This document shows, in pieces, positions 6,327 to 22,111 of a stretch of DNA of 47,394 nt. The stretch is from Clostridia bacterium (GTDB taxonomy: Bacteria > Bacillota > Clostridia > UBA1381). The position numbers and the translations under genes were made by a program. How positions within the stretch are numbered: the first letter of the stretch is position 1; each line of letters begins with the position of its first letter. The stretch covers positions 1-47,394 of the forward strand of contig JAZNQG010000200.1 of NCBI GenBank assembly GCA_045590035.1, in the 5' to 3' direction. The notes beneath the pieces are model-generated. The model saw only the letters and a program-made list of their open reading frames with translations, searched no databases and was not told the origin of the DNA.

Positions 6327-6415
6327 GCTCGAGTGGCGGAATAGGCAGACGCCCGGGACTTAAAATCCCGTGGGTAGCGATACCCGTGCCGGTTCGACCC
6401 CGGCCTCGAGCACCA
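6327..6415 (+). tRNA. tRNA-Leu (anticodon TAA), class II, CCA encoded
   Basis: Hand-folded cloverleaf: acceptor GCTCGAG/CTCGAGC, anticodon loop CTTAAAA, long variable arm, T loop TTCGACC. Confidence 0.93.
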
Positions 6416-6416
6416 G

Positions 6417-6449
6417 AAAAACAACACTCATATAGAGTGTTGTTTTTTT
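6417..6449 (+). terminator. rho-independent terminator after tRNA-Leu
   Basis: Hairpin AACAACACTC-atatag-AGTGTTGTT is followed by T7. Confidence 0.85.
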
Positions 6450-6453
6450 GTGT

Positions 6454-6630
6454 TTGTGTCCGTAATGGACACAACATCATTACGAGTGTAGCGAGTACAT
6501 CATTTGACCACTTGTGGTCAACATCATTCTTATTTTACGGACACAAAATGATGTTATCCCAGATAAATGATGTGACACTTCGTATCAATGATGTTACACC
6601 TTCAGTGTAAACGATGTTGCACTTCGTACA
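6454..6630. repeat. hairpin/8-mer array A (word ACATCATT x3, then its reverse complement AATGATGT x3 plus one 1-mismatch copy)
   Basis: Exact 8-mers start at 6474, 6497 and 6521. Reverse complements start at 6547, 6566 and 6587, with AACGATGT at 6610. Perfect mini-hairpins lie at 6456-6472, 6505-6520, 6555-6565 and 6595-6609. Confidence 0.8.
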
Positions 6631-6645
6631 AATGCGTGATATACT
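6617..6645 (+). promoter_or_regulatory. promoter for the four-helix-bundle/hydrolase genes
   Basis: TTGCAC (6617-6622), a 17 nt spacer, then TGa-TATACT (6640-6645) as an extended -10. It overlaps the last unit of array A. Confidence 0.6.
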
Positions 6646-6664
6646 AAGTCTAGAGGTGAACTTT

Positions 6665-7021
6665 ATGCAAGAAGATAAACTTGGTACACTTTCGATGGAA
6701 TTATCTGTTGAAGTTTTAAATTTAGTCAAAGATTTGCGTAATAAAAAAGAAACTATCATATCCAACCAAATAGGAAGAAGCGCAACAAGTATTTGTGCAA
6801 ATATTGCAGAAAGCAAATATGGTCATAGCAGAGCGGACTTTATTGCAAAACTGGAATTCGCCTTAAAGGAAGCCAGCGAAACTGGAAAATGGCTTGAAAT
6901 GTTATATAAATCAAATTATATTGACGAAACAAAATATAAAAGCATTGATAAAATCTGCTCGACAATTCGTATTTTGTTGATTGCGTCAATAAAAACGGCA
7001 AAGAAAAATGCAAATAAGTAA
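6665..7021 (+). CDS. four-helix-bundle protein (23S rRNA intervening-sequence protein / Avd-like family)
   Basis: The protein is about 118 aa. The motifs NQIGRSATSICANIAE and ...LKEASETGKWLEML are typical of this family as I recall it. The ATG at 6665 follows a GAGGTG RBS. Confidence 0.75.
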   Translation: MQEDKLGTLSMELSVEVLNLVKDLRNKKETIISNQIGRSATSICANIAESKYGHSRADFIAKLEFALKEASETGKWLEMLYKSNYIDETKYKSIDKICSTIRILLIASIKTAKKNANK

Positions 7022-7069
7022 TTCATTATGAATTTATCTTTTATAAGAAAAGCAATTAGGAGACAAAAT

Positions 7070-8167
7070 ATGAGATTACTTAATAAGGAAAAATTAAAAG
7101 ACAATATTGAAAAGATAGCAAGATACGATTTAGATAATAATAATCTGTTTGGCTCAGCATATTATGTATGGCAAAACGGAGATGTTGTATATAAAAATAA
7201 TTTCGGGGATGCCAAGATTGATACAATCTACAGACTGGCATCAATGACAAAGCCTGTAACAGCGATTGCGATTTTAATTTTGGTTGAGAGAAATCTTGTT
7301 TCACTGAATGACCCTGTAAGTAAGTTTTTGCCCCGGTTTCGCAATATACATATTGTGACTTTGGAGGGAGTTGACTTAGGGAAAACCGAAACAGAAGTAA
7401 CAATTCTTCATTGTCTTACACATACATCGGGTTTTGGCTCTGAAAGACAGATAAATCTTTCGGATAATGAAAGAGCAACAAAAGAAAACACTTTAAAAAG
7501 ATATATTGATGAAGGGCTTGAATTTGAACCTTTTACAAAGCAGGCTTACAGCGGATGCGCTGCATTTGATGTTCTTGCGGCAATTGTGGAAAAGGTAACG
7601 GGTATGAGTTATGATGAATTTCTTAAAAAAGAAATCTTTGAGCCCTGCGGAATGAAAGATACAACTTTTTCGCCGAGCGAAGAACAGTGGGAAAGATTTA
7701 TTACTCTCCATGATAAAAAGGACGGCAGAAGTATCGTTGGAGAATCGACAGAGGGATGCGTTTTTATAAATTTTCCGTGCGGACACAAACCGGCAGGTGC
7801 AGGACTTGCGTCGACACTTGATGATTATGCCAAATTTTCAAAAATGCTTTTAAATAAAGGGAAGACACCAAACGGAAGAATTTTATCGGAAGACATGTTT
7901 AACAAAATTTCTGTTCCGTATGTACCTGAAAGTATAATGCCGGGAAATGAAAGCTGGGGGTTGGGTGTTCGTGTTATAAGGGATGAATCTTATAAAGTAC
8001 TTCCTGAAGGTGCTTTTGGCTGGAGCGGTTATTACGGCTCACACTTCTGGATTGACCCTGAAAACAAAATATGCGCAGTGTTTATGAAAAACTCTTTAGT
8101 TGATGGCGGTGCAGAAAATAATTCGGCAGTAAGATTTGAAAATGCGGTGTTTGAGGCACTGGAGTAA
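7070..8167 (+). CDS. serine hydrolase, beta-lactamase/family-VIII esterase-like
   Basis: S-x-x-K motif (ASMTKPV), YSG motif and the C-terminal FGWSGYYGSHFWIDP pattern. The ATG at 7070 follows an AGGAGA RBS. Confidence 0.85.
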   Translation: MRLLNKEKLKDNIEKIARYDLDNNNLFGSAYYVWQNGDVVYKNNFGDAKIDTIYRLASMTKPVTAIAILILVERNLVSLNDPVSKFLPRFRNIHIVTLEGVDLGKTETEVTILHCLTHTSGFGSERQINLSDNERATKENTLKRYIDEGLEFEPFTKQAYSGCAAFDVLAAIVEKVTGMSYDEFLKKEIFEPCGMKDTTFSPSEEQWERFITLHDKKDGRSIVGESTEGCVFINFPCGHKPAGAGLASTLDDYAKFSKMLLNKGKTPNGRILSEDMFNKISVPYVPESIMPGNESWGLGVRVIRDESYKVLPEGAFGWSGYYGSHFWIDPENKICAVFMKNSLVDGGAENNSAVRFENAVFEALE

Positions 8168-8237
8168 ATAAAGAAAGTCTATTGAGACAGTCTCTTTTTC
8201 TTGGAAAGCAGAACCATAAAGAGATTTTTATTTTTTT

Positions 8238-8407
8238 ACGATATGCAAACTTCGTTTGCTCGATATTTTTGTTTTCACAAAATCGATATGTTTTTCGTTT
8301 CACTCAAAACTCGATATGCTGTAAATCTCGTTGCCACAGGCAACATATCGAGTGTGTCAGCACATATCGAGTCATTTATGACATATCGAAAATCTCGACA
8401 GAGATTT
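8238..8407. repeat. hairpin/8-mer array B (word TCGATATG, then its reverse complement CATATCGA x3)
   Basis: Forward copies start at 8238 (ACGATATG), 8260 (TCGATATT), 8283 and 8311 (both exact). Exact reverse copies start at 8344, 8363 and 8382. Mini-hairpins lie at 8245-8259, 8267-8282, 8331-8343, 8371-8382 and 8390-8407. Confidence 0.8.
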
Positions 8408-8416
8408 ATAACGATG

Positions 8417-8455
8417 AAAAAAGACAGATTTCGTGTTCGAAATCTGTCTTTTTTC
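8417..8455. terminator. bidirectional rho-independent terminator (serves tRNA-Arg on the minus strand)
   Basis: A 13-bp stem AAGACAGATTTCG/CGAAATCTGTCTT is flanked by an A run and a T run. Confidence 0.85.
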
Positions 8456-8532
8456 TGGTACACCTGATGCGATTCGAACGCACGGCCTTCAGAGTCGGAG
8501 TCTGACACTCTATCCAACTGAGCTACAGGTGC
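8456..8532 (-). tRNA. tRNA-Arg (anticodon CCG), CCA encoded
   Basis: Hand-folded cloverleaf: anticodon stem TCAGA/TCTGA, loop CTCCGAC, T loop TTCGAAT. The 1-72 pair is a G-U wobble. Confidence 0.85.
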
Positions 8533-8543
8533 ATAATACGATA

Positions 8544-8572
8544 ATTATAACCATTTTATGCCTTTTTGTCAA
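8544..8572 (-). promoter_or_regulatory. promoter for tRNA-Arg
   Basis: Minus strand reads TTGACA (8572-8567), a 17 nt spacer, then TATAAT (8549-8544). Confidence 0.75.
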
Positions 8573-8608
8573 GAATATGCGGTTTTAAGCTTCATCCCGA
8601 AAAATGAG

Positions 8609-8637
8609 TTGCAATCGGCATATAAATATGATATAAT
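8609..8637 (+). promoter_or_regulatory. near-consensus promoter firing into array C, divergent from the tRNA-Arg promoter
   Basis: TTGCAA (8609-8614), a 17 nt spacer, then TATAAT (8632-8637). Confidence 0.7.
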
Positions 8638-8822
8638 GAGTTTGCAAAGCAAACTCAATGAATTGCCTGAAGGCACGAATTGAAATCAAAGATTTCATGA
8701 AATGAGCCTGGTGGCTCATGAATAGCACCTATCGGTGCTATTTACGGCAATTCAATTCATGGAGCGTTAGCGAGAATTCATGGCGATAGCCAATTCATGA
8801 CAACGAAGTTGTCAATTCATGA
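8638..8822. repeat. hairpin/8-mer array C (four 1-mismatch variants of CATGAATT, then AATTCATG x4 exact)
   Basis: Forward variants lie at 8657-8664, 8674-8681, 8696-8703 and 8717-8724. Exact AATTCATG starts at 8754, 8775, 8792 and 8814. Hairpins lie at 8638-8656, 8665-8674, 8682-8696, 8704-8717, 8724-8739 and 8800-8812. Confidence 0.8.
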
Positions 8823-8892
8823 AAATTGTTTGACATCTAAATCGTTCACCAATTCTATAATCTAAAAAACTGCCACCGGGTAGTAGATGCTG

Positions 8893-8954
8893 AAGCATTC
8901 GTTTGCATATCGTTAGGTCTTAGAAGATATGCAAGAACGGATGCTTGTTTTTTT
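8893..8954 (+). terminator. strong intrinsic terminator/attenuator immediately upstream of the pnuC RBS
   Basis: An interrupted hairpin of about 19 bp (8893-8911 pairs with 8926-8946) is followed by G plus T7 (8947-8954). The GGAGG RBS is at 8955-8959. Confidence 0.75.
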
Positions 8955-8964
8955 GGAGGTAATT

Positions 8965-9651
8965 ATGAAAACTAAAAATCCGTTTTCTGACCTTAGCCGT
9001 TTTGAACTTATTTTATGGCTTTCGTCGGTCATTATAACCTTAATATCATATATAATATCGGGTACGGGCGATGTACTTACCGTAATTGCATCGTTGATTG
9101 GAGTAACTGCACTTATATTTGTTGCAAAAGGCTATGTTTTAGGGCAGGTGCTTACTGTTGTATTTGCAGTATTCTACGGGATTATATCCTTTTTCTTTAA
9201 ATACTACGGAGAAATGATAACCTATCTTTTTATGACCGCACCGATTGCTGTTATGTCTGTTATATCATGGATTCGTCATCCGTATAAAGGAACAAAAGAG
9301 GTGGAAGTAAGCTCACTTAATAAAAACCAGATTGTATGGGGAATTATATTTGCTGTATTAACAACAGTTATTTTCTATTTTATTCTTTTTGCGATAGGAA
9401 ATAAGAATCTCTTTTTCAGCACAATCTCAATTACAACAAGCTTTCTTGCCTGTTACCTTACATTTTTAAGAAGTCCGTATTATGCAATTATGTATGCATT
9501 AAACGACATAGTTTTAATTGTTCTCTGGGTTATGGCAACTATTGAAAACATATCCTATTTTCCGATGGTTATCTGCTTTGTAATGTTCTTGGTAAATGAT
9601 ATATACGGGTATTATAACTGGAACAAAATAAAGAAAAGACAAGCTGGCTGA
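8965..9651 (+). CDS. pnuC: PnuC-family nicotinamide riboside (or related vitamin) transporter
   Basis: A polytopic membrane protein of about 228 aa with PnuC-like length and C-terminal W...NDIYGYYNW pattern. The ATG at 8965 follows a GGAGG RBS. Confidence 0.75.
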   Translation: MKTKNPFSDLSRFELILWLSSVIITLISYIISGTGDVLTVIASLIGVTALIFVAKGYVLGQVLTVVFAVFYGIISFFFKYYGEMITYLFMTAPIAVMSVISWIRHPYKGTKEVEVSSLNKNQIVWGIIFAVLTTVIFYFILFAIGNKNLFFSTISITTSFLACYLTFLRSPYYAIMYALNDIVLIVLWVMATIENISYFPMVICFVMFLVNDIYGYYNWNKIKKRQAG

Positions 9652-21713: not shown

Positions 21714-21942
21714 AAATAAAAATGCAATAGCTAATGCTATTGCCAAAAAACACCAAAATAAAATGCGTGTTCGGCAGTAGCACTCCATCCTAAGATGACA
21801 GTCGCAATGCTTTTAACATTACGCCCAGCCCAAAGGGATTTTTCGGCATATCCCAAAAGACTTCGGCGGTTCATCCTTTCGCAACTGTCAAGTACCGATA
21901 AAACACAGCTGTTACTTATAATCACCGCGCCTCTACTTCCAA
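21714..21942 (-). promoter_or_regulatory. lysine riboswitch (L-box) with terminator, controlling asd-dapA-dapB
   Basis: Minus-strand motifs AGAGGCGC, GAAAGG, CCGCCGAAG, CTGTCA and GGAGTGCTAC. The terminator GCAATAGC-atta-GCTATTGC (21724-21743) is followed by a T run. Confidence 0.88.
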
Positions 21943-22111
21943 TATATGAAATAATATCATTATTTTCAAGCTCTGTCAAGTGATTTTTGCTTTTTTTACT
22001 CATTTTATTGCGGTCTGAAATGAAATATGATATAATTAACATATATAACTGAATATCTCACATCATAAATAACAAAAATATAAAATATACTTAATAAGAA
22101 AGGATGATTAT

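Follow-up and report, generated by a model that had tools for sequence, protein, structure and literature searches.

The stretch of DNA analysed here (hereafter the window; 47,394 nt, contig JAZNQG010000200.1 of the Clostridia bacterium assembly GCA_045590035.1) belongs to a low-GC (38%) Clostridia chromosome with housekeeping genes. Between aspS, ftsZ, ftsQ and murA on one side and tsf and rpsB on the other, it holds three intergenic arrays, A, B and C, in which small hairpins of varying sequence are joined by a short repeated word. The arrays belong to a family of small elements, ~150-190 bp in length, of gut Clostridia and their phages. That they are copies of a repeat family resembling REP (repetitive extragenic palindromic) sequences and BIMEs (bacterial interspersed mosaic elements), acting in single-stranded form, is the interpretation favoured here, and we give it an even chance.

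The array region opens with a tRNA-Leu gene (6327-6415) and its intrinsic terminator (6414-6450; together 6327-6450, + strand), and array A begins 3 nt past the T-run of this terminator. Next come a four-helix-bundle (4HB) gene of the 23S_rRNA_IVP family (PF05635; 6665-7021) and a gene for a beta-lactamase-family serine hydrolase (7070-8167, + strand), in the 3' region of which array B is located, 71 nt past the stop codon. The end of array B is the foot of a bidirectional terminator (~8409-8452), followed by a tRNA-Arg gene (8456-8532; together 8409-8532, - strand). A promoter-like site (TTGCAA, 17 nt, TG-TATAAT; 8609-8637, + strand), recognized by consensus match only, stands directly upstream of array C, which would be a transcribed 5' leader if this site is active. 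Downstream of C are a conserved leader (8870-8960) that is a riboswitch candidate and the gene of a PnuC-family transporter, pnuC (8965-9651; together 8870-9651, + strand); pnuC likewise lies downstream of the array of a relative, L027. In the preliminary description of this region, all three arrays were said to abut tRNA genes or their terminators. This is true of A, after the tRNA-Leu terminator, and of B, before the tRNA-Arg terminator, but only loosely of C, which lies beyond the tRNA-Arg promoter, and tRNA adjacency is not general among the relatives of the arrays.

Anatomy of arrays A, B and C

The region was read directly, and word positions, copy counts and the clustering of 8-mers were taken across the whole 47 kb window. 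Array A (6453-6632, no strand assigned), delimited by words and hairpins together, carries the word ACATCATT in three exact copies on the + strand (6474, 6497 and 6521), then three exact copies of its reverse complement AATGATGT (6547, 6566 and 6587) and a degenerate fourth copy, AACGATGT, at 6610. Its hairpins are found at 6456-6472, at 6505-6520, near 6554-6566 and near 6594-6610, and its centre at 6529-6546. Array B has a first half (8238-8318, + strand) of words with hairpins in between, a centre (8319-8343, no strand assigned) that holds the hairpin gttgccacaggcaac, and a second half (8344-8407, - strand) with hairpins and exact copies of CATATCGA at 8344, 8363 and 8382. Exact copies of TCGATATG in its first half are limited to 8283 and 8311, near copies being ACGATATG at 8238 and TCGATATT at 8260. 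The last hairpin of B (aaatctcgacagagattt, 8390-8407) is the counterpart of the first hairpin in the arrays of four other loci described below (L026, L027, L262 and L191). The first half and centre of array C (8638-8753, + strand) comprise a hairpin at 8638-8656, four further hairpins and the degenerate words AATGAATT (8657), ACGAATTG (8674), CATGAAAT (8696) and CATGAATA (8717), each with one mismatch, while its second half (8754-8821, - strand) contains AATTCATG in exact copies at 8754, 8775, 8792 and 8814, again with hairpins. No exact reverse complement of AATTCATG is present in the first half of C. Exact words followed by exact reverse complements, attributed at first to all three arrays, are thus found in A, whereas B has two exact forward words and the first half of C has none. 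Examples of the unit hairpins are gccGAAggc, ccccGCAgggg and aaatcccGCAAgggattt.

The shared, non-random design proposed for the three arrays is borne out by several comparisons. A, B and C are the sole places in the window with at least four copies of an 8-mer within 250 bp, a clustering of words far beyond chance, and in shuffled controls a strict scan for 7-mers in forward and then reverse orientation returned 0, 0, 0, 0 and 1 hits (block-shuffles of ~860 kb). The short perfect hairpins reported in the gaps are also substantiated: the best perfect stem per spacer has a mean length of 4.7 bp (2.6 bp when the spacers are shuffled), and a significant hairpin is found in 4 of the 8 spacers of A, in 4 to 7 of the 7 of B and in 6 to 7 of the 8 of C. 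Word-to-word spacing, thought to approximate two helical turns, proved to be irregular and unphased (16-28 bp). The heptamer TTTACGG, pointed out where orientation switches in A and C, is present there (6534 and 8741), but it occurs 11 times in the window and is missing from the centres of all related arrays, and its position is therefore probably a coincidence. No T-runs follow the internal hairpins of the arrays; only the flanking tRNA terminators have the form of intrinsic terminators.

Relatives in gut Clostridia, phages and Rfam

The design, which the preliminary description had proposed to seek in related genomes, is present in Clostridia metagenome-assembled genomes (MAGs) and in phage contigs. 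In two related MAGs (L026 and L027), four copies of GCGATATA and then four of TATATCGC are placed between the terminator of a transporter gene and the promoter of pnuC. Phage arrays were found by scanning viral contigs for three-word patterns and then for forward and reverse words, and are carried by L191 (two arrays), L262 (three), L353 (three), L394, L548 and L561, contigs with a GC content of 56-61% compared with 38% in the window. According to Pfam assignments, the phage arrays are located after terL, after a portal or scaffold-like gene or after the major capsid gene, each preceded by a G+C-rich hairpin and beginning 0-25 nt past the stop codon; one lies between terS and terL.

The words had been described as specific to each locus, but those of B (TCGATAT/GCGATAT) and C ((C/G)ATGAATTG) are also found in other bacteria and in phages, accompanied by homologous hairpins. 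Array B was matched over its full length by an nhmmer profile of the CGATAT family built from other genomes only (E 8.8e-13), and array C by the equivalent profile of the ATGAATTG family, likewise built from other genomes only (E 6.4e-16); single-sequence nhmmer searches connected B with L548, and C with L394 and L353. Hairpins are homologous position by position across the aligned arrays, as illustrated by the last hairpin of B (aaatcTc-gaca-gAgattt), which resembles aaatccc-gcaa-gggattt in L026 and L262 and aaatTcc-gtca-ggAattt in L191. Among six homologous arrays analysed with RNAalifold, 20 pairs have changed on both sides in a compensatory manner, and hairpin pairing is likewise kept through compensatory changes between L026 and L027. 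An approximate-word scan (8-mers, one mismatch, at least six copies; 166 loci) was overwhelmed by repeats that were A/T-rich or coding.

Most of the 46 pnuC upstream regions inspected have no array, so the link between array and pnuC is not general. Upstream of pnuC in L105 (2598-2668), a plain 16-nt tandem repeat (CCGATATGCTGTTCTA, five copies) without hairpins adjoins the end of a gene for a regulator, AraC-type as judged by eye, and contains the same CGATATG word as B. Another short repeat, TTCACT in four copies with a period of 7, was seen directly 3' of a tRNA gene and its terminator in L098 (~2812-2840).

Comparison of aligned loci indicates that the arrays are discrete indels. For array A, the strain comparison rests on one 3.3 kb contig, that of the closest relative available (L161), whose hydrolase is 96% identical to the hydrolase of the window. 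Array A and the 23S_rRNA_IVP gene, as an indel block of 603 bp (6457-7059, + strand), are missing there, and a 44-bp promoter stretch (L161 2086-2129) lies between the tRNA-Leu terminator and the hydrolase gene in their place. The 4HB gene (PF05635) travels with array A as one block. At the array A position in L042 (2280-2375), after tRNA-Leu and its terminator and before a 4HB gene, a long polypyrimidine/polypurine inverted repeat is found instead, flanking two copies of AAATTGTCGTTTC. At the pnuC site, the transporter terminator directly abuts the TTGACA of the pnuC promoter in L172, L173 and L029, and it is exactly at this junction, left empty in those loci, that L027 carries an array of ~190 bp. 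L026 and L169 have at the same site an array plus an open reading frame (ORF) of 78 aa, and small genes, as this arrangement suggests, may be gained cassette-like beside arrays. The ORF (L026 4074-4309, L169 2098-2334) is located between the array and the pnuC promoter, has no Pfam match and is absent in L027. In L167 (2487-2503), 2 nt separate the transporter stop from the pnuC start, and terminator, array, promoter and conserved leader are all gone. Two L262 copies share an identical half of ~80 nt, from which recent copying within one phage genome is deduced.

The design was initially considered wholly undescribed, but one half of it has the architecture of Gut-1 (RF01706), and since Rfam holds this half as an orphan motif, the design is not categorically new. 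The Gut-1 consensus consists of three hairpins joined by GUGAAAU, with the ends of the word extending the stems and a GAA linker left between them. In the supplementary seed alignment with flanks, GUGAUAUUG words and hairpins are followed by a centre and then by AUAUCAC words and hairpins (PMC2864571). Because the flanked seeds continue into a centre and reverse-complement words, Gut-1 corresponds to a single half of this inverted double element. The seed sequences stand directly after a terminator, in one case that of a tRNA gene. Similarities to the arrays are the three tandem hairpins of variable sequence, the repeated purine-rich word (GUGAAAU or GUGAUAU), the covarying stems and the gut origin; function is likewise unassigned in Rfam. 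The window arrays do contain at least three hairpins in tandem, free in sequence and connected by a short, purine-rich repeat word, the ends of which lengthen the stems. However, their words are different, Rfam models one half only, and they remain below the gathering score of 50 bits: the Gut-1 model matched 8656-8728 (+ strand), in the first half of array C, with 22.8 bits (E 0.24) and gave no hit with arrays A and B. Both halves of one phage array were matched on opposite strands, also below threshold (31.5 and 25.3 bits). Across the families, the word variants GTGAAAT, GTGATAT, GCGATAT, TCGATAT, ATGAATT and ATGATGT yield the consensus [G/A/T][T/C]GA[T/A][T/A/G]T, in which GA (TC on the other strand) is invariant.

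The accessible part of the Gut-1 paper goes no further than reporting the motif from human gut sequences (PMC2864571), and in that part the description lacks the paired opposite-strand layout, the phage late-operon site, the indel behaviour and the DNA-type loop rule. A literature search for follow-up work on Gut-1 found none. Within the searched material, the paired layout, the further word families (including the three in the window), the location in phage late operons, unit-wise gain and loss, and the DNA-type loop rule are new. Gut-1, listed in Rfam since 2010 as an orphan 'from human gut only', without organism, context or function, can thereby be placed in context, as one of the two opposed halves of an element that has several word families, is carried by gut Clostridia and in phage late operons, directly follows stop codons or terminators, is acquired and lost as a whole, and bears a loop signature characteristic of DNA hairpins and not of RNA hairpins.

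Proposed single-stranded form and competing readings

Hairpin loops (92 in total) were counted with the words set in Gut-1 orientation. T..C loops account for 46 of the 92 and G..A loops for 1 (binomial p = 7e-13), and the closing pair is C-G in 77. On the opposite strand, these loops read as c(GNA)g triloops (GAA 14, GCA 10, GGA 3, GTA 1) and c(GNNA)g tetraloops (GTCA 5, GCAA 3, GTTA 3, GAAA 2, GATA 2, GTAA 2, GACA 1), and 11 of the 18 tetraloops have a pyrimidine at their third position, unlike the GNRA loops of RNA. The array loops follow the rule of GCGNAGC / GCGNNAGC mini-hairpin DNA, of which the RNA versions are much less stable and natural examples are known from the G4 origin, ssiA of RSF1010 and phage N4 promoters (PMC13037366). 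The strand asymmetry of the loops rules out that selection acts on duplex DNA alone and indicates a single-stranded form, and it leans, without proof, towards DNA. Stems are almost all perfect Watson-Crick helices with a G.U bias on neither strand, minimum folding energy does not differ significantly between the word-orientation strand and its complement (Wilcoxon p = 0.19), wobble-type mismatches number 4 versus 5, and fold z-scores of the arrays range from -3.9 to -7.3.

In the favoured REP/BIME-like interpretation, the building block would be the half-array, that is, three to five short hairpins with perfect stems, C-G closing pairs and free sequence, linked through a constant word of 7-8 nt, and most elements would be made of two half-arrays on opposite strands, so that the word appears to flip midway. 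Selection would take place at the single-strand level, where folded hairpins may cancel the variable length of the spacers and the linker words may thereby be shown in a row to a putative trans-acting factor. The constant linker word would be the part recognized, by a word-binding protein that is possibly an HUH-type enzyme working on single-stranded DNA (ssDNA), with the hairpins as structural spacers, and two opposed halves would present the same element on both strands. The comparisons above establish homology between genomes, conserved hairpins, indel behaviour and the strand asymmetry of loops. Mobility can be proposed in addition: complete elements would be gained and lost, either at the 3' base of a terminator hairpin or immediately downstream of a stop codon, sites at which insertion is likely to be safe, and would be copied within genomes and passed between phages and bacteria. 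Where they are co-transcribed, arrays would probably affect the local transcript as structured barriers at its end or between cistrons.

Several points weigh against this interpretation. No transposase or other partner gene was found beside any copy, no target-site duplication is visible, and copies in the source genome were assessed over 47 kb only. No relatives of array A were found in two viral scans and an nhmmer search over 5.6 Mb, and array A and L161 differ by a replacement, 603 bp for 44 bp, and not by a clean insertion. The lone halves of L262, being in mRNA sense, suit an RNA beneficial to host or phage equally well, Gut-1 was rated as RNA on covariation by Weinberg et al. 2010 (PMC2864571), and the strand tests on stems (p = 0.19; 4 versus 5 mismatches) favour neither DNA nor RNA. 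A more specific proposal is that the arrays are a new class of elements acting as ssDNA, in which rows of exceptionally stable c(GNA)g / c(GNNA)g hairpins keep single-stranded DNA-binding protein (SSB) off and show the 7-8 nt word on each strand, to be read by an enzyme of gut Clostridia or their phages, for example an HUH transposase, a primase or a loader. It is possible but doubtful; the Gut-1 'RNA' would then be a DNA motif.

The arrays could also be beneficial structured RNAs, each half being a Gut-1-type module (a small RNA or a cis element in 3' untranslated regions or between cistrons) that stabilises, processes or terminates transcripts, and the two opposed halves serving transcription from either side. 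The covariation on which Rfam, like Weinberg et al., classed Gut-1 as an RNA fits this proposal, as do the lone halves of L262 and L093, which are mRNA-sense in Gut-1 orientation. Arrays right after stop codons and terminators or between co-transcribed phage late genes, the promoter-like site upstream of C and the low fold z-scores are also in its favour. We nevertheless consider it rather unlikely, given stems that are almost all perfectly Watson-Crick, without G.U enrichment or a significant energy difference between strands, and loops that obey the rule of mini-hairpin DNA when read on the strand opposing the Gut-1 orientation, with a pyrimidine as the third base in most tetraloops. The lone halves of L029 and L042 are, moreover, antisense to the flanking genes, and several arrays stand behind efficient-looking terminators, where little transcription is expected.

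The preliminary description envisaged a ladder, in which forward and reverse words of one folded molecule, RNA or extruded DNA, undergo nested pairing and the projecting hairpins turn the whole into stacked four-way junctions. Such a ladder can be drawn. Words in one half are complementary to those in the other, exactly this ladder was chosen by RNAalifold for the six homologous arrays, and some word-word helices appear in single-sequence minimum-energy folds. However, half-arrays stand alone in L093, L262 (two copies), L029, L042 and L291, and the halves are 70-110 nt apart in array 3 of L353 and in L561. Both half orders occur, the order being reversed in array 1 of L191 and probably in array A. 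Uncompensated mismatches are present in every nested forward:reverse rung of array C and in the F2:R3 rung of B, the word-flank pair is broken in two of the six arrays of the RNAalifold set, and in L027 changes at position eight of the word are not mirrored in its nested partner. For these reasons, the half-array is taken to be the unit and the complementarity of the words a by-product of two opposed halves; the evidence does not show the ladder to be the selected form, and that it is so appears quite improbable.

Protein-binding arrays in duplex DNA, of the iteron, operator, centromere or pac-site type, with inverted halves forming a symmetric nucleoprotein complex, are very unlikely. Words are strictly conserved and spacers turn over, the same words are found near pnuC in several genomes, and the phage array between terS and terL is located where pac sites often occur, all in keeping with such arrays. 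A spacing of 16-28 bp would place the words on different faces of the helix, however, compensatory palindromes and a loop asymmetry of p = 7e-13 make no sense for a duplex, no rep, par or regulator genes are found alongside, and arrays are located inside operons after stop codons. Signals of the ssi type, with mini-hairpins on each strand that exclude SSB or mark priming or loading sites in phage and host DNA, would account for halves on opposite strands, for several copies per phage genome and for loops like those of the G4 origin and ssiA of RSF1010 (PMC13037366), but loop chemistry is the sole basis of the idea, copies are found beside tRNAs and in the operons of late structural genes with no link to replication modules, and presence/absence among close relatives argues against an essential role in replication, which makes it the least probable of the readings considered.

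Known repeat systems and neighbouring features

The REP/BIME/REPIN sequences of Proteobacteria are likewise short, extragenic hairpin repeats. They follow genes and terminators, frequently form inverted doublets, occur in multiple copies, differ between strains, act as single strands and have side effects on mRNA ends. The arrays share the extragenic position 3' of genes and terminators, the inverted doublets and the variability between strains. In REP sequences, however, a constant imperfect palindrome found genome-wide is recognized by RAYT, whereas here the hairpins differ within and between arrays and the linker word is constant; REPIN halves pair together, and the hairpins here are each formed locally. 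Neither RAYT nor IS200-like genes were found among 14 scanned proteins near the arrays (47 kb of genome). Mini-hairpin DNA signals have in common with the arrays C-G-closed GNA/GNNA loops, short stems and single-stranded DNA, but are single hairpins in defined origins or promoters, with no linker-word arrays, and are not mobile intergenic modules (PMC13037366). BOX, RUP and Correia elements, which are miniature inverted-repeat transposable elements of Firmicutes and Neisseria, are similarly small, modular and intergenic, with variable numbers of internal modules and co-transcription with neighbours; they differ in being conserved throughout and in having terminal inverted repeats that pair, without the design of variable hairpins and constant linkers. 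The PeSL cassettes of T4-type phages are repeated intergenic stem-loops linked to the gain and loss of small ORFs (compare array A with the 4HB gene, and the 78-aa ORF of L026), but consist of a promoter and a single stem-loop of conserved sequence.

The arrays had been held to be neither a CRISPR locus nor plain iterons nor classical REP sequences, and this assessment stands. Against CRISPR, in which repeats of some 23-50 nt share one orientation, alternate with unique spacers about equally long and have cas genes nearby, are a constant part of 7-8 nt, the flip in orientation, palindromic spacers and the lack of cas genes in the window; against iterons or partition centromeres, which are helically phased and adjoin rep or par genes, the unphased spacing of 16-28 bp and neighbours such as tRNAs, a hydrolase and pnuC. 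Antitoxin repeats of type III (ToxI-like), nearly identical tandem units of about 34-45 nt ahead of a terminator and a toxin gene, were rejected given units of 17-28 nt with unrelated spacers and a flip, followed downstream by 23S_rRNA_IVP, tRNA and pnuC genes. Transposon ends of the Tn7/Mu type do not fit words that are too short and differ between neighbouring arrays, without target-site duplication. Integrase arm sites do not agree with hairpin spacers and no integrase, nor do transposon-excision footprints with words and hairpins conserved between species. Integron attC sites were also considered and rejected, and the TAACTGA repeats of Beggiatoaceae (PMC4679880), which are contiguous tandem heptamers, are unrelated. 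Literature searches on iterons or hairpin arrays and on Faecalibacterium phage repeats found nothing further.

Whether the elements function as DNA or RNA, which factor reads the GA/TC word and whether they are mobile have become testable questions. For the annotation of gut phages, inserts of 150-190 bp that interrupt tightly packed structural operons are of practical relevance. If the arrays were ordinary selfish repeats with incidental RNA effects, the pattern would still be explained and the notion of a 'locus-specific code' would be removed; if the ssDNA reading is true and an HUH transposase is involved, they would be a Firmicute counterpart of the REPIN-RAYT system.

GC skew in the window tracks gene orientation, and an origin or terminus signal is absent. 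The 14 proteins scanned near the arrays are of housekeeping, transporter or hydrolase type, and an exact-protein look-up of four window proteins gave no match. PnuC-family genes are preceded by a strongly conserved leader in the window (8870-8960, + strand) and in 57 other loci (for example, L027 4394-4475 and L172 1745-1820). This leader contains a CUGCCACCGGGUAG hairpin, followed by a covarying outer stem, at the same time a terminator, which encloses an ACAUC-GUUAGGUCUUAGAA-GAUGU hairpin with an almost invariant loop. With 49 distinct sequences and no match in Rfam 15 at E<=10, the leader looks like an uncatalogued riboswitch candidate. A T-box leader upstream of aspS (2188-2428, - strand) and a lysine riboswitch (21770-21943, - strand), both above their Rfam gathering scores, are ordinary.

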